Below, in pieces: positions 2,812 to 63,647 of a stretch of 64,000 nt of DNA (position 1 is the stretch's first letter; each line of letters begins with the position of its first letter). The notes below the pieces were generated by a model that saw only the letters and a program-made list of their open reading frames with translations, had not been told where the DNA came from and ran no database searches. The translations under genes were made by a program, and so were the position numbers. Source of the DNA: Escherichia phage MX01; sequence record NC_031934.1. One strand, 5' to 3'.

Positions 2812-2841
2812 ATCCTATCATGACTAAGGGTCTTTGTAAAC
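2812..2841 (-). promoter_or_regulatory. early sigma70-type promoter (GTTTAC-N18-TAGGAT)
   Basis: Minus-strand -35 GTTTAC right after terminator stem; weak -10. Confidence 0.45.
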
Positions 2842-2863
2842 CCCGAAAAGGGCCTTGCGGCCC
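2841..2863 (-). terminator. rho-independent terminator (stem GGGCC-GCAA-GGCCC then TTTT)
   Basis: GC-rich hairpin with T-run on minus strand. Confidence 0.55.
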
Positions 2864-2866
2864 TTA

Positions 2867-3067
2867 TTAGTTACTTGAATCGACCTTATAGACTTGTCCG
2901 CGGGTTTGGTAAACTTCGCCGTCCCATGTCTCGACTGTAATAGTCACGTATTCTGCAAACTGAGGTCTAGTATCAGTCCAGATATAACCGTATTCGCCGG
3001 TGACGAGCGTAACCCAGTACTTTCTCATAAAGTCTCCTTTTGTATGGCACCAATTAGTACCATACAT
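2867..3067 (-). CDS. hypothetical protein, 66 aa
   Basis: ATG-initiated ORF immediately upstream of gene 39. Confidence 0.45.
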   Translation of the reverse strand: MYGTNWCHTKGDFMRKYWVTLVTGEYGYIWTDTRPQFAEYVTITVETWDGEVYQTRGQVYKVDSSN

Positions 3068-3072
3068 ATTTA

Positions 3073-4890
3073 TTACGACATCCAGGCCTTACGGAGTTGA
3101 GGGTCATTACCAAGGAGCATTTCGAACTGTTCTTTCCAATCTTCAGGTAATTGAACAACATCAAATTTAGGGTCTTGAATCATTCGACGGTATTCAGCTT
3201 TCTCAAGAGAACCTAGTCCTTTGATATAGCGAATAGAATGTTTTGGTAGAGAGTCCTTAGCTTTGGTATAACTAGGGACATCATAGAACCATTCCTGTTC
3301 TTTACCAACCTGGGCAATAATTACCGGAGTTTTACAGAAACGTACTCGGCCTTGTTCGAACAATTCAGGCCATTGACTAAAGAAGGCTAGCAATGATGGA
3401 TAAATCGAGCCAGTACCATCCACATCGGCATCAGTCATAATAGCAATATTACGATAGTTAGTTTTCTCTGCAGGTTCACCAATAACCAATCCAGTGATTG
3501 CACAGATATCAAATAGTTCCTTGTTCTTCATGATATCTGTTGCTGTCATTCCCCAGGTATTCATAACCTTACCACGTAATGGATAGCCACCTTGAAGGTC
3601 TTTATTACGAACTTCAATGAAAGGACCCATAGCGGAATCACCTTCGGTTAGGAACAGGGTTGTATCGGCATCTTTGCCGTATAAGTTAGCTTTAATATGC
3701 TTATGGACCTTGGCTTTAGAAGCTTTCTTAGCGGCTTTAGTTTCAGCTGCCTTTTCGGCTGCTAATTTACGTGCTAAAGCAGCTTCAACGATAGGCATAA
3801 TCAACCCATCGACCTTAAGAATAGCTGTGGCAATTTTCTTAGCATCAATTTGGATATGGTTACGAATCTCGCCAAATGGAGATGTTAAGCGCTCTTTAGT
3901 CTGTGAATCAAAACGCATGTTGCTCATATCACGAATGAACATCACCATCGTAAGGCATTCTTTAACTCGTGCCTTACTTACTTCGATGCCTTTATATTTC
4001 TTCTTGATGCCTGGCAAGAGATGTTCGCAGATATCATCAAACACACATTCAACATGATGACCACCATTCTTAGTATGAATATTGTTCACATAAGTTAGGT
4101 GACGGAATCCATCCGGAGAAGGAGTAAATGCCATTGAAACATTATCAGTTTCTTGGATTACAAAGTCTTCACCAAATTGCTTAGCATACTTTTTAAAGTT
4201 GCCATCTACTTTTTTACCATTAAAAGTAAATTGAATATCAGGATAAATTACGGCCAGAGTTTGCAATCGGTCTAATGTAATATCCAGATAAATTTGCGAC
4301 AGGCTATTTTCTTCGAAATGGCTAAAGTCCGGAGTGAATATAACAGAAGTACCCTTACCTTTAGATTTCTTAGTAGACCAACCTTTGTTTTCCATTCCGT
4401 TTGAACAGTTGACAGTAATCTCATTCTCACCATCAGAGGTGATGCCTGTGAACAAAACAGAGAAGATATTAGTTAAACTACTACCGACACCATTCATGCC
4501 GCCTGTCTTACGCTCAGTGTCATCTCCAAAGTTACCACCTGCCTTTGGAATAGTCCATGCAGCTACAGGACCTGGAATTTGTTCACCGTTTTGATCGATG
4601 ACCATTGCTTGTGGAATACCACGACCATTATCAGAAACTGAAACCTGGTTATTCTTAATTTGGACATCAATTTTATTTGCGAATTTAAAATTGGTACGAA
4701 TAGCTTCATCGACAGAGTTATCAATGATTTCGTCAATTAATTTAACCAGCCCAGGAACATAGTTTACCTGTGTAAAATTACCAAACAGGAATCGACCGTG
4801 AGCTTCATTAGCACTGGAGCCAATATACATCCCACTACGTTTTTTGATATGTTCAATGTCGGACAGTACTTTAATTTCATTCTTAATCAT
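3073..4890 (-). CDS. 39: DNA topoisomerase II large subunit (GyrB-like ATPase + Toprim; unsplit 39/60 form)
   Basis: 605 aa with GHKL ATPase N-terminus and Toprim region; size fits fused gp39+gp60. Confidence 0.88.
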   Translation of the reverse strand: MIKNEIKVLSDIEHIKKRSGMYIGSSANEAHGRFLFGNFTQVNYVPGLVKLIDEIIDNSVDEAIRTNFKFANKIDVQIKNNQVSVSDNGRGIPQAMVIDQNGEQIPGPVAAWTIPKAGGNFGDDTERKTGGMNGVGSSLTNIFSVLFTGITSDGENEITVNCSNGMENKGWSTKKSKGKGTSVIFTPDFSHFEENSLSQIYLDITLDRLQTLAVIYPDIQFTFNGKKVDGNFKKYAKQFGEDFVIQETDNVSMAFTPSPDGFRHLTYVNNIHTKNGGHHVECVFDDICEHLLPGIKKKYKGIEVSKARVKECLTMVMFIRDMSNMRFDSQTKERLTSPFGEIRNHIQIDAKKIATAILKVDGLIMPIVEAALARKLAAEKAAETKAAKKASKAKVHKHIKANLYGKDADTTLFLTEGDSAMGPFIEVRNKDLQGGYPLRGKVMNTWGMTATDIMKNKELFDICAITGLVIGEPAEKTNYRNIAIMTDADVDGTGSIYPSLLAFFSQWPELFEQGRVRFCKTPVIIAQVGKEQEWFYDVPSYTKAKDSLPKHSIRYIKGLGSLEKAEYRRMIQDPKFDVVQLPEDWKEQFEMLLGNDPQLRKAWMS

Positions 4891-4916
4891 GTTATTTCCT
4901 CATGTAGTAGGAGAAT

Positions 4917-4941
4917 ATTATACCACTCCACTTAAAGCAAT
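4917..4941 (-). promoter_or_regulatory. promoter for gene 39: TGGTATAAT -10 with upstream MotA-box-like ATTGCTTTA
   Basis: MotA-box-like motif 10 nt upstream of TATAAT; middle-type geometry approximate. Confidence 0.4.
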
Positions 4942-4956
4942 AAAGGGCCGAAGCCC
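4933..4956 (-). terminator. rho-independent terminator-like hairpin (GGGC-TTCG-GCCC)
   Basis: Hairpin followed by TTTATTGCTTT downstream of lipoprotein gene. Confidence 0.45.
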
Positions 4957-5217
4957 TTAATCAAATCGAATGGTCGACTTTTTAAAGAATAATCCAGAAC
5001 AAACAGTTCCTTCAACCCTTTTACCTGTCGGACCCACAGCAATAAAGCCTGTACGTTGGAAATCATCTTCAGAACAGCCAAATAGGTTGTATCCTGTGAT
5101 TTGGATTTGTTCGTAGCCATTTGCATCCAATACACGGGTAGCATTATCAGCATCAGTACATCCAACCAATGAAACCGCCAATACTAAAGCTGCAATAGAA
5201 CGATTAATATATTTCAT
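4957..5217 (-). CDS. predicted lipoprotein, 86 aa
   Basis: Signal peptide with lipobox LVGC. Confidence 0.55.
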   Translation of the reverse strand: MKYINRSIAALVLAVSLVGCTDADNATRVLDANGYEQIQITGYNLFGCSEDDFQRTGFIAVGPTGKRVEGTVCSGLFFKKSTIRFD

Positions 5218-5223: not shown

Positions 5224-5400
5224 TCACTTAGTCAGCAGGTCGTAAAAACCGCCATTAACATGTTTAGGAGCCGAGACTAACCGAACAGCCAGCCGATGGC
5301 AATCAGGACAAACATCATTATCTCTTTCAGAGATTTTCTTGATTTTTTCGTATTCTTTTGCACAGTCTTCAGATTGGCATTTGTAATCATAAAGTGGCAT
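5224..5400 (-). CDS. zinc-ribbon protein, about 58 aa
   Basis: CxxC...CPDC pair; start moved to ATG (MPLYDYKC) preceded by AAGGAG. Confidence 0.5.
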   Translation of the reverse strand: MPLYDYKCQSEDCAKEYEKIKKISERDNDVCPDCHRLAVRLVSAPKHVNGGFYDLLTK

Positions 5401-5611: not shown

Positions 5612-5641
5612 TTTATTTTCCTCTCATTTGTTGATAGGGTA

Positions 5642-5671
5642 ATCTTATCACTACCCTACCATATTGTATAC
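5642..5671 (-). promoter_or_regulatory. early promoter-like element (GTATAC-N18-TAAGAT)
   Basis: Degenerate copy of the recurring cassette. Confidence 0.35.
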
Positions 5672-6251: not shown

Positions 6252-6324
6252 AATTTTTCTCTCTTGGTTAAAGGTTTATTCTCCATGAGAGCCATTATAA
6301 CATGGCCCTCGATAAAGTAAACTA

Positions 6325-7080: not shown

Positions 7081-7586
7081 AATTTTCTCATTTCAATAAA
7101 ATCTACAAGTTCGGCATAGGATTTGCGGAACATTACTTGGCGGCCACCGATGACAACCTCATCTTCTGGTATTTCGTAAACAGCAAGATAGAATCCTTTA
7201 GAAGATAATTCTTCACGCTCTTCACGGGTGAACCAGCGCATCATATCATACTCACTGGCAAAAGCAAAATGGTAGAGATTAACAAACCAACCTGGAATAT
7301 AATCATCACAGCCTTCATAATCAGGCTGGTTCCACTTAGTTCTAATGGTTTTATTAGAATTTTCCACCAACAACTTGTCTTGACCTGGTAGCGGAATATT
7401 TTTATTATTGGTATGGTGGTGTCTAAAATTAGGTTTGTCGAAACCTACTTCTAATAACCAACCTTCGCTCCATTCATCAAACGAGCCTCTATACGGTGTT
7501 AATTGGCGGCACTGTTGGTGAGTGATTGCTATAACATCGCTGTTATCTAAGATACTGAACGATGACTCCACTCGATAAATTTTCAT
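7077..7586 (-). CDS. hypothetical protein, 169 aa
   Basis: ATG with AGGAG SD and canonical early promoter upstream. Confidence 0.6.
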   Translation of the reverse strand: MKIYRVESSFSILDNSDVIAITHQQCRQLTPYRGSFDEWSEGWLLEVGFDKPNFRHHHTNNKNIPLPGQDKLLVENSNKTIRTKWNQPDYEGCDDYIPGWFVNLYHFAFASEYDMMRWFTREEREELSSKGFYLAVYEIPEDEVVIGGRQVMFRKSYAELVDFIEMRKL

Positions 7587-7613
7587 TTTGTTCTCCTCGT
7601 GTTGATAGGGTAG

Positions 7614-7642
7614 ATAATATCATGTCATGAGGAGAAGTAAAC
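7614..7642 (-). promoter_or_regulatory. early promoter (GTTTAC-N17-TATTAT)
   Basis: Cassette followed by AGGAG SD and ATG of 169-aa gene. Confidence 0.6.
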
Positions 7643-10940: not shown

Positions 10941-10966
10941 CTTACGGACGATTGGTTGATAGGTCT

Positions 10967-10995
10967 ATAGTATCATGTTGCTTGGTAAAGTAAAC
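10967..10995 (-). promoter_or_regulatory. early promoter (GTTTAC-N17-TGATACTAT)
   Basis: Canonical cassette upstream of srd-like gene. Confidence 0.65.
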
Positions 10996-11680: not shown

Positions 11681-11705
11681 ATTATTCTCCTCAGTTGATA
11701 GAAAG

Positions 11706-11735
11706 ATAGTACCACAAGCTTCCTTGCCTGTAAAC
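11706..11735 (-). promoter_or_regulatory. early promoter (GTTTAC-N18-TACTAT)
   Basis: Cassette upstream of modA-like gene. Confidence 0.6.
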
Positions 11736-12304: not shown

Positions 12305-12328
12305 ATGACCTCCAGTGATTTAGAGGTC

Positions 12329-12358
12329 ATTATAACATGAAGGGAGGAGGTGTAAAAC
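12329..12358 (-). promoter_or_regulatory. early promoter (TTTACA-like -35, TATAAT -10)
   Basis: Upstream of modB-like gene with GGAGG SD. Confidence 0.5.
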
Positions 12359-13919: not shown

Positions 13920-13945
13920 AGTGTTCTCCTCTATAAGGTAAGACC

Positions 13946-13975
13946 ATCTTAACACAACCTTCCTAGAAAGTAAAC
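13946..13975 (-). promoter_or_regulatory. early promoter (GTTTAC-N18-TAAGAT) fused to soc terminator
   Basis: -35 follows terminator T-run directly. Confidence 0.5.
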
Positions 13976-13983: not shown

Positions 13984-14008
13984 CGAAAAAAGGAACCCGA
14001 AGGTTCCT
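13984..14008 (-). terminator. rho-independent terminator after soc (GGAACC-TTCG-GGTTCC then TTTTTT)
   Basis: Perfect 6-bp stem, tetraloop, T6 run. Confidence 0.65.
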
Positions 14009-14013
14009 TATAA

Positions 14014-14806: not shown

Positions 14807-14869
14807 TATATTTTTCCTTTTTCAATTCATTAATAAGTTAGATAATTATAACATTAAAATTATAAGCAA

Positions 14870-16209
<1,340 letters not shown>

Positions 16210-16236
16210 TTTTAATCTCCAGTAGTTGATAGGTCT

Positions 16237-16265
16237 ATAGTATCATATCTACCTGGGATGTAAAC
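16237..16265 (-). promoter_or_regulatory. early promoter (GTTTAC-N17-TGATACTAT)
   Basis: Canonical cassette upstream of the PD-(D/E)xK-like gene/dam. Confidence 0.65.
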
Positions 16266-16271
16266 TGATTT

Positions 16272-16279
16272 TATAAATA
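16272..16279 (+). promoter_or_regulatory. late promoter TATAAATA, plus strand
   Basis: Exact TATAAATA 22 nt upstream of plus-strand ATG at 16301. Confidence 0.5.
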
Positions 16280-18858: not shown

Positions 18859-18886
18859 AATGTTCTCCTCGGTAGTTGATAGGGAT

Positions 18887-18916
18887 AATATACTGCATTA
18901 TCCCTTTGATGTAAAC
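18887..18916 (-). promoter_or_regulatory. early promoter (GTTTAC-N18-TATATT)
   Basis: Cassette upstream of lipoprotein gene. Confidence 0.55.
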
Positions 18917-19440: not shown

Positions 19441-19464
19441 TTTGTTCTCCAAGTTGATAGGTCT

Positions 19465-19493
19465 ATAGTATCATGCCTATAGGAGATGTAAAC
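19465..19493 (-). promoter_or_regulatory. early promoter (GTTTAC-N17-TGATACTAT)
   Basis: Canonical cassette directly after gene 41 terminator. Confidence 0.65.
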
Positions 19494-19500: not shown

Positions 19501-19522
19501 ACAAAAAAGGAGCCGAAGCTCC
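19501..19522 (-). terminator. rho-independent terminator after gene 41 (GGAGC-TTCG-GCTCC then TTTTTT)
   Basis: Hairpin abuts gene 41 stop; T6 run. Confidence 0.65.
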
Positions 19523-20962
19523 TTAAAATTTGATAGATGCTGCTAAATCATCTAAATCACTTCTATTAACACGCGTCTGTCGATTGACCTCGGCCTGGCG
19601 ATTCATCTCACCTGTAGCCTCACGAACAGTGTTCACTGGGCCTGGGTTGGAATCGTCTTCAACTTCGTACCAACGTTGATTTCCTTTCTTAACACCAATC
19701 TTAAATTTGTTGTAGTAGCTCTTATCACCGTAACGAGATTTAAGCTGCTTAACCATCTGCATACCCATCTGAGCAAACTCTTCTGTCTCGACCACGCCTA
19801 ACATGAAGTCTGCAGTATGTGCAATACCAAAGGATTCAGCAATATCGGCCATATCGATTTCGGCTGCAACGTTCGCACCACGAGTAGTCTGGGCTGCAGT
19901 CCACAACAGTAATTTCTTCTCTACTGCAAGTCCACGTAGTTCTTCGGCAACCATCTTAATCAATCCGTAACTGTTTTCAGAGAAAACTTTCGTACGAGAT
20001 GATGCACAGATAGCCAAGTAGTCGACGATAACAACCTGTGGGACAAAGTTTTGTTTAAGCTTGTATTCGTTTAATAATGCACGGAAGGTATCGGCATTAG
20101 CACCACCGGTAGGATACTGTTTAATCTTTAAACGACCTAAAGTAGCAGTTGAACGCCATTTATCCATCTTAGCTTTGTATTCAGGCCAAGAGACATGACC
20201 ATCATCGATATCATCCAGTGATACATCCAGAAGGTTGGCATCGATACGCTTAGCACATACTTCCTCTGCCATCTCCATGGAGATATAAAGAACGTCGTAA
20301 CCAGATTGAAGGTAATCAGCAGCCAATGAACACAGACCAAGAGACTTACCTACGTTTGTTCCTGCCAACAATACGTTTTCAGTACCAAACTCAGCACCAC
20401 CCTTGGTAATCTTATTCAGAATATTAAGACGGAATGGAACCTTACGTGCTTTATCGGAATAACTTTTGAATCGTTCTTCATAGTCATCCATCCAGTCATG
20501 ACCTAATTCAGAATCGAAACAAATCGATAATGCATCACGCATGATATCTGGAATAGCACCAATACCTGGAAGTTTTCTATTTTGTTGCTCAACCGGAAGG
20601 TCGGCATTAGTTTGGATTTCAATGATTTTTGAAGTTGCATTATACATCGCTGCTTTCTGAACGTATTTCTCCGTCTCTTTAACCAACCATTCTTGGTCTT
20701 CAGGTCCAGCATTCAGTGAGCTTAAAAGCTCTTTAGCTCCTTGATGTTCGACTTCTGAAAGCGTGCTGTTATCTAATGCAATGCTCAATGCGTTCTTGGA
20801 AGGCACTGCATTATATTCATTGACGTGTTTTTTAATTTCTTTGAAAAGGGTCTTTGCTGGACCCTGGTCAAAATATGAATCATTCATATAAGGCCAAACC
20901 TTAGTGAAATAATCACTATTGCCTAGCAGTTGAGCCAAAATAGTTTCTACCACTTCCACCAC
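19523..20962 (-). CDS. 41: replicative DNA helicase (DnaB-like)
   Basis: 479 aa; Walker A GTNVGKS; T4 gp41 size and position. Confidence 0.9.
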   Translation of the reverse strand: MVEVVETILAQLLGNSDYFTKVWPYMNDSYFDQGPAKTLFKEIKKHVNEYNAVPSKNALSIALDNSTLSEVEHQGAKELLSSLNAGPEDQEWLVKETEKYVQKAAMYNATSKIIEIQTNADLPVEQQNRKLPGIGAIPDIMRDALSICFDSELGHDWMDDYEERFKSYSDKARKVPFRLNILNKITKGGAEFGTENVLLAGTNVGKSLGLCSLAADYLQSGYDVLYISMEMAEEVCAKRIDANLLDVSLDDIDDGHVSWPEYKAKMDKWRSTATLGRLKIKQYPTGGANADTFRALLNEYKLKQNFVPQVVIVDYLAICASSRTKVFSENSYGLIKMVAEELRGLAVEKKLLLWTAAQTTRGANVAAEIDMADIAESFGIAHTADFMLGVVETEEFAQMGMQMVKQLKSRYGDKSYYNKFKIGVKKGNQRWYEVEDDSNPGPVNTVREATGEMNRQAEVNRQTRVNRSDLDDLAASIKF

Positions 20963-27608: not shown

Positions 27609-27638
27609 TGTAATTTCCTCATGTAGTTGATAGGAAGG

Positions 27639-27668
27639 ATAATACCACGTTCCATGTGGTATGTAAAC
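27639..27668 (-). promoter_or_regulatory. early promoter (GTTTAC-N18-TATTAT)
   Basis: Cassette upstream of imm-like gene. Confidence 0.55.
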
Positions 27669-34076: not shown

Positions 34077-34138
34077 AATATTTTCTCTCATTTGGTTGGT
34101 AAATGTATTATAAATCAATATTTTAAAGCATTTAACGT

Positions 34139-34339: not shown

Positions 34340-34376
34340 ATCTTTATCGGTCGCTGTATCAAATAAGGATTTGATA

Positions 34377-35093
34377 ATGAATTATAAATCAATATACGAA
34401 AAGCTTATTCAACGAGCAGTTAATAGAAATTTAACTACCTATAAAGAACGTCATCACATTATACCACAATGCATGGGTGGAACGGACGACGCTTTAAACT
34501 TGGTAGACTTAACACCTGAAGAACATTACTTGGCTCATCAGTTGTTAGTTAAAATCCATCCAGATAATGCATCGTTAGTCTATGCGGCAAGAATGATGAC
34601 AGTTAGCTCACCAAAAGCTGATAGGTCTAAAAATAAATTATTTGGATGGCTTCGTCGTAAGAATTCAGAAGCCCAAAAGGATAAAGAATTCTCGGAAGAA
34701 ACCAGAAAGAAAATGTCAATTTCCGCTTTAAAAAAGCCTAGAGTTACCTGTCCACACTGCGGTAAAACTGGATTGGTAGGCAATATGAACAGATGGCATT
34801 TCGATAACTGCCCTAAAGGCCCTAATAAAGTAGACCGCTCTATATCTGAAGAGCAAAAATTAAAAATAAAGAAAGGCCTAGAAAACATGGTCCATAAAAT
34901 TGTGGAATGTGAATTCTGTGGCCTTTCAGGAAAATCCTGTGTTATTGCCTCTCATAAAGTTTTTTGTAAGAAAAATCCTAACGGGCGCAAAAAAACAGAA
35001 AAGAAGGTAGAATGCCCTCATTGTGGTAAACAAGGGAATTCCGGTAATATGAATCGTTGGCATTTCGATAACTGTAAAATGAAGCCTCAATAA
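34377..35093 (+). CDS. HNH homing endonuclease with C-terminal zinc-finger repeats
   Basis: HNH motif ERHHIIPQCMGGTDDALNLVDLTPEEHYLAH; two CPHCGK...NMNRWHFDNC repeats; only large plus-strand gene; AAGGA SD; TATAAATA upstream. Confidence 0.8.
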   Translation: MNYKSIYEKLIQRAVNRNLTTYKERHHIIPQCMGGTDDALNLVDLTPEEHYLAHQLLVKIHPDNASLVYAARMMTVSSPKADRSKNKLFGWLRRKNSEAQKDKEFSEETRKKMSISALKKPRVTCPHCGKTGLVGNMNRWHFDNCPKGPNKVDRSISEEQKLKIKKGLENMVHKIVECEFCGLSGKSCVIASHKVFCKKNPNGRKKTEKKVECPHCGKQGNSGNMNRWHFDNCKMKPQ

Positions 35094-38190: not shown

Positions 38191-38233
38191 ATGTTCTCCT
38201 CAGTTTAGACTATTGTACTCCGATATACATAAA

Positions 38234-38256
38234 GCAAAAAAGGAGCCTAAGCTCCT
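38234..38256 (-). terminator. rho-independent terminator (GGAGC-TTAG-GCTCC then TTTTTT)
   Basis: Hairpin with T6 run upstream of the gene-47 unit. Confidence 0.55.
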
Positions 38257-38420
38257 TTACCAACTAATACACCATACAGAGGTTCACGTGAAGATTTGAA
38301 CTTAATAGGCTTATATGTAATAGTACCTTCATTTTCTGATTTAATACGAGCGGCTTCAAATTGAAGAATCATCTCGTTTTTGTCAGATTTAATCTTATCA
38401 AAATCCGTCGAATTCGTCAT
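38247..38420 (-). CDS. possible small ORF, about 57 aa
   Basis: ATG with AAGAGG SD; stop lies inside terminator stem; weak. Confidence 0.25.
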   Translation of the reverse strand: MTNSTDFDKIKSDKNEMILQFEAARIKSENEGTITYKPIKFKSSREPLYGVLVGKGA

Positions 38421-40340: not shown

Positions 40341-40666
40341 TTCGCCGCCTTAACAATTTTCAGGTCAACGAATTTTTTCTTACGTTGGTTTTTCATACGA
40401 CGGATAGTTTTATCCGTGATTTCACCCGGTTGCCAAGCTTTAGATTCAACACCAAATGCAGCGACATCGAATTCATCAAGGATATATTGAACCAGGATTT
40501 CACGAATACCGTTCTTACCAATTTTCTGGTCTTTAGAGTGCATGATTGGTAACAGTTCAGCAACCCATTGGTCGAGAATTTCAGGAGTCACAAAACCTGT
40601 ATTCATCAGTTCATTTACTTTATCGAAAGCGAAAGAGTTCAGTACGTTTTTAATAGCTTGTGACAT
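40337..40666 (-). CDS. hypothetical protein, 109 aa
   Basis: ATG with GAGGAA SD; initiation region identical over 22 nt to that of 47307-48149. Confidence 0.5.
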   Translation of the reverse strand: MSQAIKNVLNSFAFDKVNELMNTGFVTPEILDQWVAELLPIMHSKDQKIGKNGIREILVQYILDEFDVAAFGVESKAWQPGEITDKTIRRMKNQRKKKFVDLKIVKAAK

Positions 40667-40733
40667 AATAATTTCCTCAGTTTTAAATTATAATCCGTAG
40701 GACCATTATACTCTGGTCCCAAGAGTTTGTAAA

Positions 40734-40934
40734 CTATTTTTGTGCTTTGGCGCCTTTCCAACCTTCATACATCATTGCTGCGGAAATTAACAAAGCACCC
40801 GAGCAACTTGAATATTTGTGATTCCAAAACCAGTTTAGAAAAACTTCGTCATCAATACCTTGGGCTATCATATTTTCAAAGAACTGACGACGAGATTCGG
40901 CAATTCGCTGTGATAATTTAGATTCAGGATTCAT
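40734..40934 (-). CDS. hypothetical protein, 66 aa
   Basis: Small ORF. Confidence 0.4.
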   Translation of the reverse strand: MNPESKLSQRIAESRRQFFENMIAQGIDDEVFLNWFWNHKYSSCSGALLISAAMMYEGWKGAKAQK

Positions 40935-40945
40935 TTAAATTTTCC

Positions 40946-41239
40946 TCAGCTGTAACGATAACACTCGTTTGATTTACGTTTTGCAACTCGATGAGAAGTA
41001 TTGTAATCAGGTTCATCGTCGTTGTAAACATCTTTTTTCAGCTTTCTCACTTCTTTACGAAGCTGGCGGTTCATTTCATTCTTAACTTCGGAATCAACGC
41101 CTCTCATACGTTTCCACTTGTCAGAACGGAAGATATTTTCTTCAACCAGTTCCTGACTTACACCGTCCGGTGCTTTACGGCGACCTGAATAATAAAAATC
41201 TTTTACAGACAATTCTTTACGACGGATAGTTTTACCCAT
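40946..41239 (-). CDS. hypothetical basic protein, 97 aa
   Basis: Lys/Arg-rich ORF. Confidence 0.45.
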   Translation of the reverse strand: MGKTIRRKELSVKDFYYSGRRKAPDGVSQELVEENIFRSDKWKRMRGVDSEVKNEMNRQLRKEVRKLKKDVYNDDEPDYNTSHRVAKRKSNECYRYS

Positions 41240-41674: not shown

Positions 41675-41703
41675 AATGGTCTCCTCATGTGTTGATAGGA
41701 TAG

Positions 41704-41732
41704 ACTATAACACGCGAGGAGAGGAAGTAAAC
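41704..41732 (-). promoter_or_regulatory. early promoter (GTTTAC-N17-TATAGT)
   Basis: Cassette followed by GAGGAG SD. Confidence 0.6.
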
Positions 41733-43264: not shown

Positions 43265-43441
43265 TCAGACCCCATAGAATGAACGATGCAAACGTTTAAA
43301 TTGCCGAATCATCTTTTTAGTAGGACGGGTATATAATCCTATACAGGTGGCCATAAACTGGTCAGTTGGACTTCCTTTGATAAGAAGTTTCCAGACCTTA
43401 CCGCCATTTAATTTTTCGGTATAGACTAATACAGTTTTCAT
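43265..43441 (-). CDS. possible small basic protein, about 58 aa (not in ORF track)
   Basis: ATG overlapping stop of upstream ORF (ATGA). Confidence 0.3.
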   Translation of the reverse strand: MKTVLVYTEKLNGGKVWKLLIKGSPTDQFMATCIGLYTRPTKKMIRQFKRLHRSFYGV

Positions 43442-43740
43442 GCGACCTCAAATTCATTATCATCGTTAGTCCAAAAACACCAGAATGCAGATTTAGTGCC
43501 TTCATACATTTCTTTGGTGTATTCATATACCTTACCGTTGAACTCAATAGCAGTCACACCAATGATTTCAGGATTACCCCAGGGAGAAATCTCCACCTTC
43601 AAGATTTTAACTTCAGCACCTTCACAGAGCTTACCGGATTCAAAGCCGCGATTGCCGTTTAATTCAGGCCAGTCAACATAATGGTCAACGGTTTCTTCAG
43701 TAATACGAACAGTTTTACCTTCAAATTCAAATAAATTCAT
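43438..43740 (-). CDS. hypothetical protein, 100 aa
   Basis: Co-oriented ORF. Confidence 0.5.
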   Translation of the reverse strand: MNLFEFEGKTVRITEETVDHYVDWPELNGNRGFESGKLCEGAEVKILKVEISPWGNPEIIGVTAIEFNGKVYEYTKEMYEGTKSAFWCFWTNDDNEFEVA

Positions 43741-43955
43741 CAGAATACCTCATCAGAAAAGCGAAGTTGAGATTCAAGCCAATGGATATAGTCAGCGGCA
43801 GCTTTAATCAAATCGGATTCTAGGTCAGGTAAAGAACCTGAATCCGACAACTCGTAAAGCGAATGTTCAATCAGACGGCCTTTATGACGGCCAACTTCAA
43901 TTTTGGTACTCATATCCAAACTCCATATCGATGAAATCATTGTTTGAAGGTTCAT
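43740..43955 (-). CDS. hypothetical protein, 71 aa
   Basis: Co-oriented ORF. Confidence 0.45.
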   Translation of the reverse strand: MNLQTMISSIWSLDMSTKIEVGRHKGRLIEHSLYELSDSGSLPDLESDLIKAAADYIHWLESQLRFSDEVF

Positions 43956-44029
43956 TATACTCTATTTCGGAATCGTTGTAAACCGGTTCCTCTGGCCCGG
44001 TAGTTTCCCACCGAGCGACATACCATGGC

Positions 44030-44338
44030 TTAACGGTCACACCACCAACTAGATACTTCAAAATCGGGTTCACCATCTTCCCAATACCAAGGACCAATTG
44101 GGTGCCAATCACCGTGTTCATCTTCTTCAAATTCTTCGGATTCAAGCCCAACGTATTGCCATTGGACTTCATAAGCAGTACCACCGATTACAACGGTGTT
44201 CTCACCATATGGGTGAGCTACAGCAAAGTCTATACCTTCTGCTTTAGCCAACCAAACCATATATTCATATAGTTTATATTCCAGGTCATCTTCGGTGCCA
44301 TCACCTAGAAAAATGGTTTGTTCGTTTAATTCAATCAT
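44030..44338 (-). CDS. hypothetical acidic protein, 102 aa
   Basis: Highly acidic ORF, ATGA-coupled to nrdC. Confidence 0.45.
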   Translation of the reverse strand: MIELNEQTIFLGDGTEDDLEYKLYEYMVWLAKAEGIDFAVAHPYGENTVVIGGTAYEVQWQYVGLESEEFEEDEHGDWHPIGPWYWEDGEPDFEVSSWWCDR

Positions 44339-44598
44339 TTGAAATACGCTCGCAGCTGGTCAAACCCACCAATATGACTTCCGTCTGGAGCGAATACCTG
44401 AGGCATAGTCAAACCGACCTGAGATTCGCGTCCAAGTGCAGTCAAGAGTTCAGCAATCTTCTCATCATCAAACACGCCTTTTTCCGGCATCACGTTAATG
44501 AATTCGTAAGGTTGTTTCTTAACATCAAGCAGACGTTTGGCATTATCACAGAAAACACAACGGTGAATATTTGAATCGTAACCATAAACTTTAAACAT
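44335..44598 (-). CDS. nrdC: thioredoxin NrdC
   Basis: 87 aa; near-identical to recalled T4 NrdC (MFKVYGYDSNIH.CV.CDNAKRLL). Confidence 0.9.
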   Translation of the reverse strand: MFKVYGYDSNIHRCVFCDNAKRLLDVKKQPYEFINVMPEKGVFDDEKIAELLTALGRESQVGLTMPQVFAPDGSHIGGFDQLRAYFK

Positions 44599-46168: not shown

Positions 46169-46195
46169 GATATTCTCCTCAGTAGATTTAAAAAG

Positions 46196-46225
46196 ATTAT
46201 ACTCCATCCGTCCTTGGATGTAAAC
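46196..46225 (-). promoter_or_regulatory. early promoter (GTTTAC-N18-TATAAT)
   Basis: Cassette followed by GAGGAG SD and ATG at 46168. Confidence 0.6.
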
Positions 46226-47126: not shown

Positions 47127-47304
47127 AGAATTTAGCGATTGGCCAGGTTATAATAAAAACTATCCCAAATATAGCAAGAACTGGCCAGATAAAGGTGGCA
47201 AACACTGCTTCACCACCTGAGTTAATTTCCATATGATTACGACCAATAAGGACAGTAATGAATCCTAATGCAAGGTACAGAAGAATAAAACCTGCGATTT
47301 CCAT
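47104..47304 (-). CDS. small two-TM membrane protein, 66 aa
   Basis: Two hydrophobic segments. Confidence 0.45.
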   Translation of the reverse strand: MEIAGFILLYLALGFITVLIGRNHMEINSGGEAVFATFIWPVLAIFGIVFIITWPIAKFYEKLFGL

Positions 47305-47306
47305 AA

Positions 47307-48149
47307 TTAATCCTTAAGAAGATTTAAAATATCTGTATATTTTTGACGTTCAGCCTTAGCTTTAGCGTTCAGACCAGAGAGTCGGAAAATCTCATCGTCT
47401 TGTTGCTGAATTGTAACATTCAAGCAAGTAAGCAAATTGCTAAAATACTCGATTTGAGCTTGATGCTTCTCATTGCTGCGCACTGGTACAGGTTCCATTT
47501 TAGGAGCTTCTGAATGATTCTTAACTTCATTACCCGGCTTAACAAGTTTAATACGCCAGCCTGTACTGGTATTAACATTATCGAAGGTAAGAATACCGCT
47601 ACGTTCTAGTTCAGACAAAGCCAATCGAAGATGGAACTCCCAGTTGTCATATTGACAACCACTAAAAGTTGAAGTAAGATACTCGTTTTCGTTACCTGGT
47701 TGGTTGACAATATTAAAGATAATCCAATCACCTGAACCATTAGTCTTAAATGGCATTTGCTTATCTTTACCTAAAGCTAGACGAGCACCCAGTGCTAGTA
47801 AACGACGTTGGTTAGTACGAAGGTCTTTAACAACTTCATCAAATGACATCGCCGGGATTAAACGACCATAGAGGTCATAGCCTTTGTTATAATTTCTAAG
47901 AATAATTCTGGCGTTAGCACGAGTCAACATACCGGCCCTGTGAAGAGATTTCATGACTCGGTCTTCTAACGTAAACAAACCTTTAGTCTTGTCAAAGATT
48001 TTAGTGAATTCATCTACAGAAATACAAACTTCAAACTTTTCCCACATCATGGCCAAAACCTTTTCAACCACTTCTTTATTCAGTGGAATACGACCAAATT
48101 TAATAACTTTTTTAACTTCAGAACGAATTTGATTAATTGCCTGTGACAT
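47307..48149 (-). CDS. hypothetical protein, 280 aa
   Basis: ATG with GAGGAA SD. Confidence 0.55.
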   Translation of the reverse strand: MSQAINQIRSEVKKVIKFGRIPLNKEVVEKVLAMMWEKFEVCISVDEFTKIFDKTKGLFTLEDRVMKSLHRAGMLTRANARIILRNYNKGYDLYGRLIPAMSFDEVVKDLRTNQRRLLALGARLALGKDKQMPFKTNGSGDWIIFNIVNQPGNENEYLTSTFSGCQYDNWEFHLRLALSELERSGILTFDNVNTSTGWRIKLVKPGNEVKNHSEAPKMEPVPVRSNEKHQAQIEYFSNLLTCLNVTIQQQDDEIFRLSGLNAKAKAERQKYTDILNLLKD

Positions 48150-48212
48150 AATAATTTCCTCAGTAAGTAATTAAGAACCTAGAACCATTATACCATCCTT
48201 GGTATAAAGCGT

Positions 48213-48737
48213 TTATGCGAGAACCGTCTTTAAACGCTCTTCAAATTTCTGAAGCAGAGCTTGGCGTTCAGCTCGTTGTGATTTGTACTGCTCGATACGA
48301 CCTGAAGTGAGGGCGTACTGTTCGTTTACTGATTCCCGCATGAATTCAGGAATCTCTTTACAAGCTTTGATTTCGTCAAACTTATCAATAACAGCTTGTT
48401 GTTCAGCAATCAGATTATCGAAATAAGCGATATCAGATTTAACGTTTGCCAGGTCGGATTCGGTAGGCATTAAACGTTTGTTACGTTCAGCTTGATAAGC
48501 TTGATTGGTTTCACGACTCCAGTGAAGAGTACGTTTTTTGTTGGTGTTTTTATAGAGCTCTACAATACCAACTGAATCGATGATAACAATCCAGTTCCAA
48601 CGGCTTTTGTAAATCTCTCCTCCAGATACGGTAATCTCATTACCGCAAGCAACGTCGTTAAAGAACTTGCTTTGTTTTTCAGATTTGAAATTACCATTAT
48701 TAAAATTAATCAGTGAAAAAATATCTTTAGCGTTCAT
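48213..48737 (-). CDS. hypothetical protein, 174 aa
   Basis: ATG with GGAGG SD; canonical early promoter upstream. Confidence 0.55.
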   Translation of the reverse strand: MNAKDIFSLINFNNGNFKSEKQSKFFNDVACGNEITVSGGEIYKSRWNWIVIIDSVGIVELYKNTNKKRTLHWSRETNQAYQAERNKRLMPTESDLANVKSDIAYFDNLIAEQQAVIDKFDEIKACKEIPEFMRESVNEQYALTSGRIEQYKSQRAERQALLQKFEERLKTVLA

Positions 48738-48763
48738 GATAACCTCCAGTAGTTGATAGGTCT

Positions 48764-48792
48764 ATAGTATCATTTCTACCGGAGATGTAAAC
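48764..48792 (-). promoter_or_regulatory. early promoter (GTTTAC-N17-TGATACTAT)
   Basis: Canonical cassette followed by GGAGG SD. Confidence 0.65.
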
Positions 48793-50126: not shown

Positions 50127-50163
50127 TATATTCTCCATTTCACTCAGTAGATTTGATAGGTCC

Positions 50164-50192
50164 ATAATAACATGCTCTACGAGAGTGTAAAC
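50164..50192 (-). promoter_or_regulatory. early promoter (GTTTAC-N17-TATTAT)
   Basis: Cassette between terminator and AAA+ ATPase gene. Confidence 0.6.
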
Positions 50193-50212: not shown

Positions 50213-50234
50213 AAAAAAGGCCCGAAGGCCTTTT
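50213..50234 (-). terminator. rho-independent terminator (GGCC-TTCG-GGCC flanked by A6/T4)
   Basis: Symmetric hairpin between NTase-fold gene and next promoter. Confidence 0.6.
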
Positions 50235-52474: not shown

Positions 52475-52594
52475 TACAGTTTCCTCGCTAACCGTGAAAA
52501 GAATAAACCAATTAAAACAGGCCCTACAACCATTGTTAACCAAGCCCAAGGTTCAAGATAGTAAATCATCTTCATGCTCCTATGCCACCAGCCA

Positions 52595-53018: not shown

Positions 53019-53046
53019 ACTGTTCTCCTCATTAGTTGATAGGTCT

Positions 53047-53075
53047 ATAGTATCATGTTCCTAGAGGATGTAAAC
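53047..53075 (-). promoter_or_regulatory. early promoter (GTTTAC-N17-TGATACTAT)
   Basis: Canonical cassette directly after a terminator. Confidence 0.65.
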
Positions 53076-53083: not shown

Positions 53084-53110
53084 GAAAAAAGGTCCCACCG
53101 AAGTGAGACC
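53084..53110 (-). terminator. terminator-like hairpin (imperfect 8-bp stem) then TTTTTT
   Basis: Hairpin with T-run directly upstream of promoter 53047-53075. Confidence 0.5.
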
Positions 53111-53115
53111 TTTGA

Positions 53116-57116: not shown

Positions 57117-57144
57117 TTTGTAATCTCCTGTAGTTGATAGGTCT

Positions 57145-57173
57145 ATAGTATCACGTCTACAGGAGATGTAAAC
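57145..57173 (-). promoter_or_regulatory. early promoter (GTTTAC-N17-TGATACTAT)
   Basis: Canonical cassette upstream of regB. Confidence 0.65.
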
Positions 57174-58944: not shown

Positions 58945-58968
58945 ATTATTCCTTAAGTTGATAGAAGT

Positions 58969-58998
58969 ATTCTATCACGGATTTAATTAAGCGTAAAT
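58969..58998 (-). promoter_or_regulatory. early promoter-like element (ATTTAC-N18-TAGAAT)
   Basis: Upstream of ipII-like gene. Confidence 0.4.
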
Positions 58999-59403: not shown

Positions 59404-59432
59404 TTTAGTGTTCTCCGTGTTTGTATGAGAAC

Positions 59433-59461
59433 ACTATATCACAGCTGTTGTAAAAGTAAAC
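59433..59461 (-). promoter_or_regulatory. early promoter (GTTTAC-N17-TATAGT)
   Basis: Upstream of denV with GGAGA SD. Confidence 0.55.
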
Positions 59462-60404: not shown

Positions 60405-60457
60405 ATGGGTTCCTTAAAGGTAAATATTTTAATTGGTCTGTTCAAGTAACTGTAGAT

Positions 60458-60486
60458 ATACTATCACAATTCTAGGAGATGTAAAC
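60458..60486 (-). promoter_or_regulatory. early promoter (GTTTAC-N17-TAGTAT)
   Basis: Upstream of ipIII-like gene. Confidence 0.55.
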
Positions 60487-61366: not shown

Positions 61367-61388
61367 AATACCTCCTGAGTATAGGAGG

Positions 61389-61396: not shown

Positions 61397-61846
61397 TCAA
61401 AAGAGCGAATCTAAAACCTTAAACATCGACGGGCCCATGACATATTCCCATTGCGGACGTTTAATCAAGGCAAAAGCATCAAATTCAGGAATAGTACGAC
61501 CATCAGGGAACGTATGGTAAGCCGTACATTTGCAATCCTTGAACTGCTCGTGTTCCACAGGCACCGTATATAAGAACAGATGTAGATTCTTATTGCTTGA
61601 ATATTTGAACTCACCCAGGTCTTTCAGGAACGCAGGATCGTATGCTGTGAATCCAATCTCTTCTTCGGTTTCGCGCATTGCCGCTTGAATGGGCTCTTCG
61701 CCTGGTTCGACATGACCCTTAGGAATGTCCCATTTATGACGCATATTCTCTGGATTACGAGAGCCTGTTACACGGCCCATGACCAGTTCTTTATCAACGG
61801 TCATGAATAAAATACCGGCAGATAGTTCTTTCACTTTCTTACTCAT
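61397..61846 (-). CDS. nudE: Nudix hydrolase
   Basis: Nudix box GHVEPGEEPIQAAMRETEEEIG; start moved to internal ATG (about 149 aa). Confidence 0.7.
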   Translation of the reverse strand: MSKKVKELSAGILFMTVDKELVMGRVTGSRNPENMRHKWDIPKGHVEPGEEPIQAAMRETEEEIGFTAYDPAFLKDLGEFKYSSNKNLHLFLYTVPVEHEQFKDCKCTAYHTFPDGRTIPEFDAFALIKRPQWEYVMGPSMFKVLDSLF

Positions 61847-62075
61847 CGTCTCGTTCCCATGATTGTTTAAAAATATCTTGCATAATAATTTGAAGTCTAT
61901 TTTCTGATGATGGACTTTCACTATCAGACACTTGAAGCATATAGTCACCAATAGGACAGAACATATCCATATCGCTTTCTAAGTCTTCTTTAATTTTCTC
62001 TTCTGATGTTCCGGTATCATAGGAATACAGGTAAGAATCACATGACTCAGATTTAATATAAATTGCAATACTCAT
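61839..62075 (-). CDS. hypothetical acidic protein, 78 aa
   Basis: Co-oriented ORF. Confidence 0.45.
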   Translation of the reverse strand: MSIAIYIKSESCDSYLYSYDTGTSEEKIKEDLESDMDMFCPIGDYMLQVSDSESPSSENRLQIIMQDIFKQSWERDDE

Positions 62076-62665
62076 TTACGGCATTCCTCAATAAACTCAT
62101 TTAAATTCTGTTTGATTTTACCTTCGTCGTAAAGACGTTGTTGACGACGTAAACGCCATGGCATTTCAATAGCCAAGCACCAAATACTTAAAGCAGCGCC
62201 AGCGGCGGCAAGGTTCATTAATCCAGCGCCAATAATAGTTCGTTCTAGCGCATCATTCCAGTTGGCATCGATTAAAAATGAACTCAGCACTAACATTGGA
62301 AGTAAAGTAATAAAATACGCTACAACATATCGTCCGAACGTAAGCCATTCAGTATCAATGAGCCTGGCCTTTCCATCTTGGAGACAAATATACTTATCGT
62401 CAGTGCGAGTGATTTTCTTTACTGGTTGCCAGCCGTTTACAATATAGCCCATTTTATATTCCTCAATTAAAAGCTGTTTCATTTCGGCAGTACAACCTGA
62501 CCAATCTATTGTACTGGCTGAAATTCCTTCATCACAGTCATCGATATTTCGCCAGGACTTTTTAATAATCATATGTTCACCACTTGGGATAATAATTCCG
62601 GCATTTTCCGACCTACGGATGAAGTTTGTATCAATACCCATACATCCAGGTTCATAAAGGGCCAT
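62072..62665 (-). CDS. membrane protein, 197 aa
   Basis: C-terminal half with hydrophobic helices. Confidence 0.5.
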   Translation of the reverse strand: MALYEPGCMGIDTNFIRRSENAGIIIPSGEHMIIKKSWRNIDDCDEGISASTIDWSGCTAEMKQLLIEEYKMGYIVNGWQPVKKITRTDDKYICLQDGKARLIDTEWLTFGRYVVAYFITLLPMLVLSSFLIDANWNDALERTIIGAGLMNLAAAGAALSIWCLAIEMPWRLRRQQRLYDEGKIKQNLNEFIEECRK

Positions 62666-63354
62666 TACCAGCCCTCCATAGGAAATTCCAGATATACTTG
62701 AGCATTAACACGGATTTCATTAGTAATCTTTTTAACACGGTCTGTATTACGAGACACACGACCAAACCAGCGCCACCCATTACTTACTGCACGAGAACCT
62801 GTATGCCACGTCTGCCAATCAAACTGGAGCAACGTGCGGTCAGGAGCATCCCACTTAGTTAATTCATTAGACTCAATTTTTTCCAGAACTTCTTTATGCC
62901 ACTGGCGATAGATAAGTTCGCCTTCAGGAATCTGACTGAACTGTGCAGTTCCGGTTGCAAAATGAGTAGGACACACATCAGCGTTAACAAGACCAAGAAT
63001 ATGTTCAGAATGGTATCGAGGATTATCATAATCAGGTTGCCCTGCGGTAATAAAGTGTTGACCAACCGGAATATCCGGACGGGGTACATCATCATGGTGG
63101 AAGCCTGGAATTGCAGGGTACCAGCCAGGCATTAACATGTGTACACGGGAATCAAATACAATATCAGGGCCACATTGCCAATCTTCAGGCAGGTTTTCAA
63201 TAAAGCTACGAGTAATAGGACCGCCATGTTTATGAGCAAAATAAGCATCGCAATTAAAGAACATAGGCTCATTTTTAATCATATCATTACTGATATCTTG
63301 AGCAAAACCACCTACTGCACGAGCTTTAGAATTAAAAATTTTTGGACCGTTCAT
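62665..63354 (-). CDS. hypothetical His-rich protein, 229 aa
   Basis: Large ORF; several His/Asp clusters; fold not assigned. Confidence 0.55.
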   Translation of the reverse strand: MNGPKIFNSKARAVGGFAQDISNDMIKNEPMFFNCDAYFAHKHGGPITRSFIENLPEDWQCGPDIVFDSRVHMLMPGWYPAIPGFHHDDVPRPDIPVGQHFITAGQPDYDNPRYHSEHILGLVNADVCPTHFATGTAQFSQIPEGELIYRQWHKEVLEKIESNELTKWDAPDRTLLQFDWQTWHTGSRAVSNGWRWFGRVSRNTDRVKKITNEIRVNAQVYLEFPMEGW

Positions 63355-63368
63355 AATATTTTCCTCAC

Positions 63369-63581
63369 TTACTTTTTGTTGAAAAAGTACATTTTACCTT
63401 TAGGGGATAAAGATACACGAAGTGCGTTACCAATACCAACTGAACATTTAACCAGGTCAGCAGATTTCAATTCACCAAATGCTTGACGAAGGTCACCGTC
63501 ACGAGTGTTAACCATCAGGCATTTAGCACCAGCTGCACGAACTTCGTTTAACATGTTGATTGCTTGGTTAGAAAGTTTCAT
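63369..63581 (-). CDS. hypothetical protein, about 70 aa
   Basis: Start set to second ATG after GGAG; early promoter 63619-63647 lies inside the track ORF. Confidence 0.5.
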   Translation of the reverse strand: MKLSNQAINMLNEVRAAGAKCLMVNTRDGDLRQAFGELKSADLVKCSVGIGNALRVSLSPKGKMYFFNKK

Positions 63582-63618
63582 TTTATTCTCCATTTCACTC
63601 TGTTGTTTTGATAGGTCT

Positions 63619-63647
63619 ATAGTATCATGCCTATAGACCTTGTAAAC
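63619..63647 (-). promoter_or_regulatory. early promoter (GTTTAC-N17-TGATACTAT)
   Basis: Canonical cassette. Confidence 0.65.

Follow-up and report, generated by a model that had tools for sequence, protein, structure and literature searches.

Escherichia phage MX01 carries a motif of roughly 42 bp that recurs on the minus strand of the 64,000-nucleotide stretch analysed here (sequence record NC_031934.1; hereafter the window). The question this locus raises is what the copies are and what their stem-loops do. The original prediction took them to be about twenty near-identical T4-type early promoters, many fused to stem-loop terminators, and likened them to the cassettes of T4-type phages that act as recombination hot spots for accessory genes. 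Such cassettes, known as promoter-early stem-loops (PeSLs), have been described in RB49/phi1 (Arbiol et al. 2010, PMC2839356) and in PST/T4 and nt-1/KVP40 (Comeau et al. 2014, PMC4122927). Taken as a whole, the copies in the window are very probably sigma-70-dependent early promoters of a JS98-type (Dhakavirus) T4-like phage. Some are preceded by a terminator, and about half are embedded in a hairpin.

The window is 93-97% identical by megablast to LHE83, E33, QL01 and WG01, T4-like coliphages of the JS98 group (genus Dhakavirus), and nucleotides 1-64000 of QL01 and JS98 are colinear with it; at least 44 database records span 80% or more of its length. Essentially every gene lies on the minus strand, in the order rIIA, 39, motB, dda, modA/B, 61, 41, uvsX, 43, 45, 46/47, 55, nrdC.x, tk, regB, denV, ipIII and e, followed by the e.x open reading frames (ORFs). 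Five relatives (JS98, QL01, LHE83, E33 and EcWhh-1) were used for comparison.

We searched the window for the motif and used dinucleotide shuffles as the control. All 23 exact matches to GTTTAC-N17/18-TAnnnT are on the minus strand. A position weight matrix (PWM) derived from 20 seed copies found 26 distinct minus-strand sites, no plus-strand sites and 0-1 per shuffle (mean about 0.1). With at most one mismatch, GACCTATCAAC has nine matches, all on the minus strand, where 1.06 are expected; none of 100 shuffles reached nine. We took 23 of the 26 PWM sites as convincing. They run from 2841, where the GTTTAC of the first copy lies (its -10 ends at 2812), to 63647, in agreement with the coordinates and strand first proposed. 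The 20-mer TGATACTATAGACCTATCAA is identical in seven copies (63647, 57173, 53075, 48792, 19493, 16265 and 10995), as had been claimed, and six of these seven share a 21-mer with a final C. The other 16 copies have only the consensus in common, so the term near-identical fits a subfamily and not the whole set. In IMG/VR, the exact 21-mer is confined to about seven contigs, with roughly 5-9 copies in each. A generic sigma-70 scan (TTGACA/TATAAT) was uninformative, giving 64-69 matches per 20 kb versus 55-62 in shuffles; only the phage-specific PWM discriminates.

Each copy has an A-rich UP-like tract, GTTTAC at -36..-31, a spacer of 17-18 bp and a -10 extended by TGn; C residues follow at -3..-1. 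A start-site box, CTATCAAC, stands at a fixed offset in 15 of the 23 copies. Numbering the -10 as -12..-7 gives the conserved box as C(-2)T(-1)A(+1)TCAAC. The position derived from the -10 places the putative +1 at the A of CTA, and transcripts would begin AUCAAC. The distance from this inferred +1 to the Shine-Dalgarno sequence (SD) or ATG is 11-47 nt. Every copy lies in sense orientation at a gene junction, and the spacing between copies is irregular, from 0.4 to 13 kb.

All 23 sites have the -35, spacer, -10 and A-rich tract of T4-type early promoters, whose consensus, from Liebig & Rueger and Wilkens & Rueger, is summarised in Nolan 2006 (PMC1524935) and Hinton 2010 (PMC2988021). Those of T4 have been described as UP/-35/TGn/-10 'uber' promoters (Hinton 2010, PMC2988021), and the published consensus has GTTTAC at -36..-31, an A-rich tract at -40..-44 and, in RB69, C at -3..-1 (Nolan 2006, PMC1524935). 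The likeness to T4 thus extends over the UP-like A tract, the GTTTAC position, the TGn and the -10, with the C residues as in RB69, and T4 copies also show complementarity between spacer and leader. The same early genes lie downstream: motB, motB.2, srd, modA, modB, mrh.2, sp, imm, 55.2, 55.6, nrdC.x, regB, denV, ipIII and small ORFs stand directly 3' of copies in the window. About nine or ten promoters match GTTTAC-type sites of T4 in position (motB, motB.2, srd, modB, mrh.2, sp, dmd, imm.1 and 55.6), which indicates that they are mostly conserved regulatory sites and not mobile cassettes. The main difference is uniformity. The box CTATCAAC is present in 15/23 copies here versus 1/13 in the first 50 kb of T4, and seven copies here are identical over 20 nt. 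By analogy with T4, where this is established, host RNA polymerase would fire these promoters right after infection.

The 23 predicted early promoters are listed below; each is referred to by its higher coordinate.

63607..63647, minus strand: canonical box TGATACTATAGACCTATCAAa; small hypothetical ORF, ATG 63581
Hairpin at 63647: spacer GGTCTATAGG pairs with CTATAGACC, overlapping -10/+1; -16.5 kcal/mol, z -4.2
60446..60486, minus strand: ipIII-like gene, ATG 60404; upstream edge of an internal-protein module of about 1.05 kb
59421..59461, minus strand: denV, ATG 59403; non-canonical type
58957..58998, minus strand: weaker promoter with ATTTAC as -35; internal head protein gene, ATG 58944; score 16.1; conserved in relatives
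57133..57173, minus strand: regB, ATG 57116; canonical box
Hairpin at 57173: 11 bp, ATCTCCTGTAG (57167-57157) with CTACAGGAGAT (57133-57123), over the SD; -18.9 kcal/mol, z -5.9
53035..53075, minus strand: canonical box; ORF of 78 amino acids, ATG 53018; terminator directly 5'
50152..50192, minus strand: nrdC.10, ATG 50126; terminator 5'
48752..48792, minus strand: nrdC.8, ATG 48737; canonical box; hairpin ATCTCCGGTAG/CTACTGGAGGT over the SD, -17.6 kcal/mol
46184..46225, minus strand: nrdC.4, ATG 46168
41692..41732, minus strand: 55.6-like ORF, ATG 41674; positional orthologue of the T4 promoter at 41706
Hairpin at 41732: TCTCCTCGCGTGT/ACACATGAGGAGA over the SD; -20.8 kcal/mol, z -6.0
40693..40734, minus strand: 55.2, ATG 40666
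27627..27668, minus strand: imm, ATG 27608
19453..19493, minus strand: canonical box; orf34-like gene and dmd, ATG 19440; terminator directly 5'
18875..18916, minus strand: sp, ATG 18858; hairpin GGGATAAT/ATTATCCC around the -10
16225..16265, minus strand: canonical box; head of a 1421-bp insertion (14852-16272)
13934..13975, minus strand: mrh.2, ATG 13919; terminator directly 5'; positional orthologue of the T4 promoter at 15288
12317..12357, minus strand: modB, TTTTAC as -35, ATG 12304; hairpin GACCTC/GGAGGTC across the start site and SD
11694..11735, minus strand: modA, ATG 11680
10955..10995, minus strand: srd; canonical box; without a significant dyad
7602..7642, minus strand: motB.2, ATG 7586; hairpin CTCCTCATG/CACGAGGAG over the SD, -14.4 kcal/mol; the T4 orthologue of this promoter (T4 8218) has an analogous hairpin
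6282..6322, minus strand: motB, ATG 6251; hairpin GAGGGCC/GGCTCTC around the -10
5630..5671, minus strand: cef, GTATAC as -35, ATG 5611; hairpin GGTAGGGTA/TACCCTATC around the -10, -16.9 kcal/mol, z -5.3
2800..2841, minus strand: ORF of 107 amino acids, ATG 2794; terminator directly 5'

Judged qualitatively, these sites cluster at 2.8-19.5 kb and 40.7-63.6 kb, the accessory-gene regions, which is the kind of location described for PeSLs. The replication core at 19.5-40.7 kb (genes 41 to 55) holds a single promoter, that of imm at 27668.

Two kinds of stem-loop accompany the promoters. The first is an intrinsic terminator, found directly upstream of 5 of the 23 (2841, 13975, 19493, 50192 and 53075). 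All five are compact GC-rich hairpins followed by a U-run, 8-22 nt 5' of the -35, with a predicted folding energy of -10.5 to -16.1 kcal/mol; the loop is UUCG in four and GCAA in one. They would separate transcription units.

53088..53113, minus strand: terminator with 11-bp stem, UUCG loop and U-run, 12 nt 5' of the -35 at 53075; -16.1 kcal/mol, z -5.3
50215..50234, minus strand: terminator with 8-bp stem, UUCG loop and U-run, 22 nt 5' of the -35 at 50192; -11.1 kcal/mol; bidirectional-looking
19507..19524, minus strand: terminator 3' of gene 41, with 7-bp stem, UUCG loop and U-run, 13 nt 5' of the -35; -10.5 kcal/mol
13990..14009, minus strand: terminator 3' of soc, with 8-bp stem, UUCG loop and U-run, 14 nt 5' of the -35; -11.4 kcal/mol
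2850..2863, minus strand: terminator GGGCCGCAAGGCCC and U-run, 8 nt 5' of the -35 at 2841; -13.0 kcal/mol

The two fusions that the original prediction quoted (13984-14008 with 13946-13975, and 19501-19522 with 19465-19493) are correct; at 5/23, its statement that many promoters are fused to terminators was overstated. The commoner stem-loop, which it had not seen, is an inverted repeat across the -10. In about half of the promoters (about 12-14), the spacer is reverse-complementary to the sequence 3' of the -10. As in PeSLs, then, stem-loops are associated with these promoters, both as the five upstream terminator hairpins and as the about 12-14 promoter-spanning inverted repeats.

The pairing is specific to each promoter. 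Cognate spacer/leader duplexes had a mean energy of -11.04 kcal/mol versus -7.92 for non-cognate pairs, with none of 50,000 permutations as low (P < 2e-5), and duplexes with shuffled spacers gave -6.05 +/- 0.46 kcal/mol. This excess was reproduced in JS98, QL01, LHE83, E33 and EcWhh-1 (z -10 to -12) and was weaker in T4 (n = 12, P = 0.0024). Individual hairpins range from -14.4 to -20.8 kcal/mol (z -3.5 to -6) and fall into two classes. In class 1, the 3' arm lies at -9..+6 (63647, 18916, 5671, 6322 and 40734). In class 2, it lies at +1..+19 over GGAG/GAGG and includes the SD (57173, 48792, 41732, 7642, 50192, 12357, 16265, 53075, 19493 and others). The 5' arm of both classes is in the untranscribed spacer.

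We then asked whether the arms co-vary. Orthologues within the genus, at 95% similarity, carry too little variation for this, and we turned to paralogous cassettes, taking 51 distinct canonical-box ones from six genomes and IMG/VR. Around an identical 21-nt box, the arms change together, as in CTCCTGTAG/CTACAGGAG, CTCCAGTAG/CTACTGGAG and CTCCATTAG/CTAATGGAG. Among 12 distinct canonical cassettes, 97.7% of cells were paired, versus 30-58% in slid registers. Compensatory changes occur at two pairs, with a covariation score of 0.212 versus 0.092 when shuffled (0/500 shuffles as high).

Since the 5' arm lies in the stretch that separates the -35 from the -10, it is absent from the promoter's own transcript and present only in read-through RNA. 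Only RNA that enters from an upstream promoter could therefore fold into the hairpin, which would mask the SD or attenuate the transcript, and the gene would then be translated mainly from its own-promoter transcripts. The sequence is consistent with masking. An anti-SD tetramer, CTCC or CCTC, is present in 8/23 spacers versus a background of 5.4% (P = 2e-5). The predicted probability that the SD is unpaired was 0.43 in own-promoter RNA and 0.26 in read-through RNA (P = 0.0005), compared with 0.43 and 0.39 (not significant) in 61 promoter-less control genes, and the drop was larger for the promoter genes (P = 0.007). This measure of the SD core, with control genes, replaced the accessibility of the whole SD-to-AUG region, which gave a weaker signal. 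At 57173, 48792, 41732, 12357, 7642 and 46225, the predicted value was at most 0.02 in read-through RNA versus 0.21-0.56 in own-promoter RNA. In six genes, including regB, nrdC.8, 55.6, modB and motB.2, the SD is thus predicted to be essentially fully paired in read-through RNA, giving in prediction the arrangement of an SD-sequestering hairpin with a nested promoter, in which the SD is paired in the long transcript and the 5' arm lies upstream of the start.

These data raise the possibility, which we advance tentatively and at less than even odds, that in JS98-type phages, and less so in T4, many early promoters carry an anti-SD arm in the spacer. Their genes would be translated only from their own early-promoter transcripts and would be silent on read-through or middle-mode RNA. 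Such a per-gene 'translation insulator', deployed genome-wide, would restrict proteins such as the RegB nuclease to immediate-early expression.

Several observations weigh against these readings. The +1 was derived from the -10. The SD is actually covered in only 6-11 of 23 hairpins, and the class at -9..+6 leaves it free. The covariation comes from a small set, with four gene contexts and two variable pairs. Sense and antisense folding, compared as a test of G.U versus A.C asymmetry, did not differ significantly (-11.3 versus -10.6 kcal/mol, P = 0.09), so an RNA-level role is not distinguished from a DNA-level one. Finally, one RB49 stem-loop acts as a terminator or attenuator, a function unlike SD masking (Arbiol et al. 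2010, PMC2839356).

The cassettes might instead be primarily mobile recombination modules, PeSLs in the strong sense, serving as preferred sites of exchange and mini-circle formation and driving most shuffling of accessory genes. To compare them with gene-content breakpoints, we aligned the window to the five relatives and collected 64 breakpoint clusters. Ten of the 64 fall in cassettes, which make up 2.8% of bases (P = 1e-5 under a whole-sequence null). Whole-gene indels must end between genes, however, and gene junctions are thus the proper null. By this measure, a breakpoint was found at 8/23 promoter junctions and 33/96 promoter-less junctions (odds ratio 1.02, P = 0.58), and when only junctions with spacers of 40 nt or more were counted, the trend was reversed. 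We therefore rejected the whole-sequence enrichment as evidence of a hot spot.

Individual exchanges at cassettes do occur. In JS98 and EcWhh-1, the 50192 cassette is duplicated on either side of an extra 257-bp segment, the overlap being 55 nt. E33 and EcWhh-1 lack the internal-protein module of about 1.05 kb that cassettes 60486 and 59461 bound, and the junction falls within GTTTACATCTCCT. Compared with QL01 and JS98, the sp cassette (18916) is a chimera whose crossover lies inside CCTATCAAC, and the nrdC.8 cassette of JS98 is a mismatched chimera. The denV promoter has been swapped, QL01, JS98, E33 and EcWhh-1 having a different, canonical cassette with the junction at the ATG. A 233-bp insertion in JS98 and EcWhh-1 abuts the -35 of the modB promoter (12357), and an insertion also abuts the -35 at 57173. 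The 1421-bp insertion headed by cassette 16265 occurs in none of the five relatives: QL01, JS98, LHE83 and EcWhh-1 lack it, and E33 has other DNA in its place. In addition, the 55.2 promoter of the window (40693-40734) matches the T4 motB promoter (T4 7174-7215) without a mismatch from the -35 through the 18-nt spacer and the -10 to 5 nt beyond (GTTTACAAACTCTTGGGACCAGAGTATAATGGTCC). One cassette thus occupies separate loci in different genera; the motB promoter of the window itself (6322) is a different one.

On the other side, 15/23 promoter junctions are unchanged across all five relatives, about nine or ten positions are kept out to T4, and most indels either have 5-18-nt microhomology at stop/start overlaps or are homing-endonuclease genes. 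Because copies share 20-55 nt, they occasionally serve as crossover points. The cassettes can serve as crossover sites and are not demonstrably hotter than other junctions in this lineage. Several cassette-bounded swaps among relatives bear out the shuffling that had been predicted; a hot spot is not shown by these comparisons, and we consider it rather unlikely that recombination is the primary role of these cassettes.

Somewhat less likely still is that the promoter-spanning hairpins are transcription attenuators or terminators for upstream transcripts and not translational masks. In lacZ reporters, the RB49 stem-loop mentioned above cut expression as strongly as the rrnB T1 terminator, and RB49/phi1 PeSLs most commonly have their stem-loop either in the -35 to -10 interval or across the -10 (Arbiol et al. 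2010, PMC2839356). The hairpins here are also stable (-14 to -21 kcal/mol). However, a U-run is missing after every promoter-spanning hairpin and the loops measure 6-23 nt, whereas the five genuine terminators of the window are separate, compact hairpins with UUCG or GCAA loops and U-runs. A pure terminator would need neither the match of the 3' arm to GGAG/GAGG, seen in 8-11 copies, nor the enrichment of anti-SD sequences in spacers.

We think it improbable that the dyad acts on DNA, where a cruciform or single-strand hairpin might affect how the promoter opens or draw in recombination or endonuclease VII, or that it is a by-product of cassette origin through snap-back or template switching. 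The lack of a significant sense/antisense asymmetry is compatible with such a role, and Arbiol et al. (2010, PMC2839356) speculate that the stem-loop functions in DNA binding or recombination. Yet the arms differ between cassettes while pairing is kept, which makes a sequence-specific protein site unlikely, and a role on DNA does not explain why the 3' arm falls on the SD. Arms of 7-12 bp with loops of at most 23 nt are, moreover, poor cruciform formers.

Nothing beyond the recurrence of a short sequence favours reading the repeats as a CRISPR-like array, as the end of a transposon or as an artefact of chance or composition. This reading can be dismissed, as the original prediction had done for CRISPR, given the irregular spacing, the sense orientation of all copies at junctions upstream of an SD and ATG, the strand bias and rarity in shuffles described above, and an Rfam search of the window that matched no family; the anatomy of the copies already refutes it.

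The remaining three PWM sites (24409, 41029 and 43983) are weaker and intragenic, and two of them are conserved in T4. These two could be internal early promoters, or the match could merely reflect coding conservation.

40988..41029, minus strand: candidate GTTTAC-N18-TACAAT site in a 55.5-like coding region; also in T4 (41261)
43942..43983, minus strand: candidate GTTTAC-N18-TATAAT site in a pin/49.1-like coding region; also in T4 (47452)

Two further terminators are fused not to early promoters but to middle promoters with a MotA box (TTGCTTTA, 11-12 nt, TAtAAT). Comeau et al. 2014 (PMC4122927) describe such an arrangement as 'PmSL'.

4905..4958, minus strand: terminator (4958-4943) and MotA-box middle promoter (GCTTTA at 4938, then TATAAT), upstream of 39.1
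38205..38258, minus strand: terminator (38258-38239) and MotA-box middle promoter (GCTTTA at 38235, then TACAAT), upstream of a-gt.2

A scan for MotA boxes gave 10 minus-strand and 5 plus-strand matches, of which only four intergenic ones are credible. Other MotA-box middle promoters (GCTTTA, 11-13 nt, TAnnnT) lie at 48180-48215 upstream of nrdC.6 and at 34100-34135 upstream of 45.2/rpbA. The genes 55.2 (40644-40666) and nrdC.6 (48127-48149) have an identical initiation region, ACTGAGGAAATTATTATGTCACA, despite their early and MotA-type promoters, respectively; this shared region had been predicted at 22 nt and is 23 nt long.

The gene-content differences among relatives include several other features. 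The insertion at 14852-16272 encodes a 186-amino-acid ORF and a 259-amino-acid D12-class N6-adenine methyltransferase (Dam, E 6e-38), and T4 has dam at the same position. The 186-amino-acid ORF matches phrog_8706 (unknown function) and, below threshold, the Pfam DpnII restriction-endonuclease family (E 9e-4, 19 bits versus a cutoff of 23); it might be a GATC-related nuclease or regulator. Two insertions in the replication module are missing in the five relatives and match homing endonucleases, at 32373-32939 on the minus strand (phrog_314, E 8.5e-16) and at 34371-35093 on the plus strand (phrog_655, E 4.9e-69); apart from the latter, no gene of the window is clearly on the plus strand. Endonucleases drive these indels, which are unrelated to promoters. 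A match to GACCTATCAGC at 34617, inside the plus-strand insertion and without a -35 or -10, was rejected as chance.

Small ORFs present in relatives and not here include goF (435 bp), orf47 (209 bp), 46.1 (204 bp), 55.4 (115 bp) and others. The corresponding sites (5397-5400, 30471, 36777-36781, 40933-40945, 44326-44343, 47299-47310 and 52585-52591) are edged by direct repeats of 2-18 nt at stop/start overlaps, such as TCAAATGATTGAATTAA, which suggests gain or loss by microhomology at translationally coupled junctions. At 43438-43955, a homologue of PinA, the Lon protease inhibitor, is seemingly split into adjacent ORFs of 100 and 71 amino acids, one matching the N-terminal and the other the C-terminal half of Pfam Inhibitor_I24; a 454-bp segment of this region (43442-43895) is missing in QL01, LHE83 and E33.

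The analysis provides a complete map of early promoters and terminators for the first 64 kb of a Dhakavirus genome, which is useful for annotating and engineering therapeutic T4-like coliphages. The published idea of PeSLs as hot spots was not supported quantitatively in this lineage, where promoter junctions broke no more often than others. The promoter kind is already known, and the modelled masking of the SD appears to be the sole part with some novelty. If anti-SD hairpins do silence read-through, a mechanism of a few T4 late genes would be extended to a general timing device for early genes, and promoter-embedded hairpins would be compact natural insulator parts for synthetic operons.

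How do these elements compare with known systems? In structure, as far as it can be read from the DNA, they are PeSLs: an early promoter, an associated stem-loop and an SD/ATG, located in accessory regions. As had been proposed, their layout is the published one, a composite of AT-rich tract, strong early promoter and stem-loop followed by SD/ATG, at the head of early genes. The stem-loop is upstream, as in PST/T4, or between the -35 and -10 or over the -10, as in RB49/phi1. Clustering in accessory-gene regions is also shared, some copies bound indels or replacements between close relatives, and middle-promoter 'PmSL' versions are present too. We found no paper in the literature describing PeSLs in Dhakavirus; Arbiol et al. 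(2010, PMC2839356) mention 'PeSL-like sequences' in JS98 near gene 43. Compared with RB49 PeSLs, the -35 is GTTTAC and not TTGACA, the stems are not polyG/polyC, and many loops enclose the whole -10, with a 3' arm that often is the SD. For PST/T4, only upstream stem-loops have been noted. The 21-nt box TGATACTATAGACCTATCAAC is lineage-specific, and breakpoints are not enriched relative to other junctions. In RB49, termination, promoter strength and mini-circles were examined with lacZ reporters and inverse PCR (Arbiol et al. 2010, PMC2839356).

For the hairpins, two other systems offer parallels. In E. coli, sigma-54 promoters contain CT-rich anti-SD insulators (Levy et al. 2017, bioRxiv 10.1101/086108), short motifs within the promoter that pair with a downstream SD and there silence read-through translation. 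The promoter class and host context are different, and the pairing here is 7-12 bp and cognate-specific, so this is an analogy only. The other parallel is T4 e, soc, 49 and I-TevI. In long early transcripts of these genes a hairpin sequesters the SD, which is free in RNA started at a promoter nested within that hairpin (Uzan & Miller 2010, PMC3014915). In both cases the promoter is nested in the hairpin, the SD is in the 3' arm and the 5' arm is missing from the proximal transcript. In those T4 genes the nested promoter is late (or middle) and delays expression, whereas here it is early and found at many genes, an arrangement that would confine their translation to the immediate-early window.

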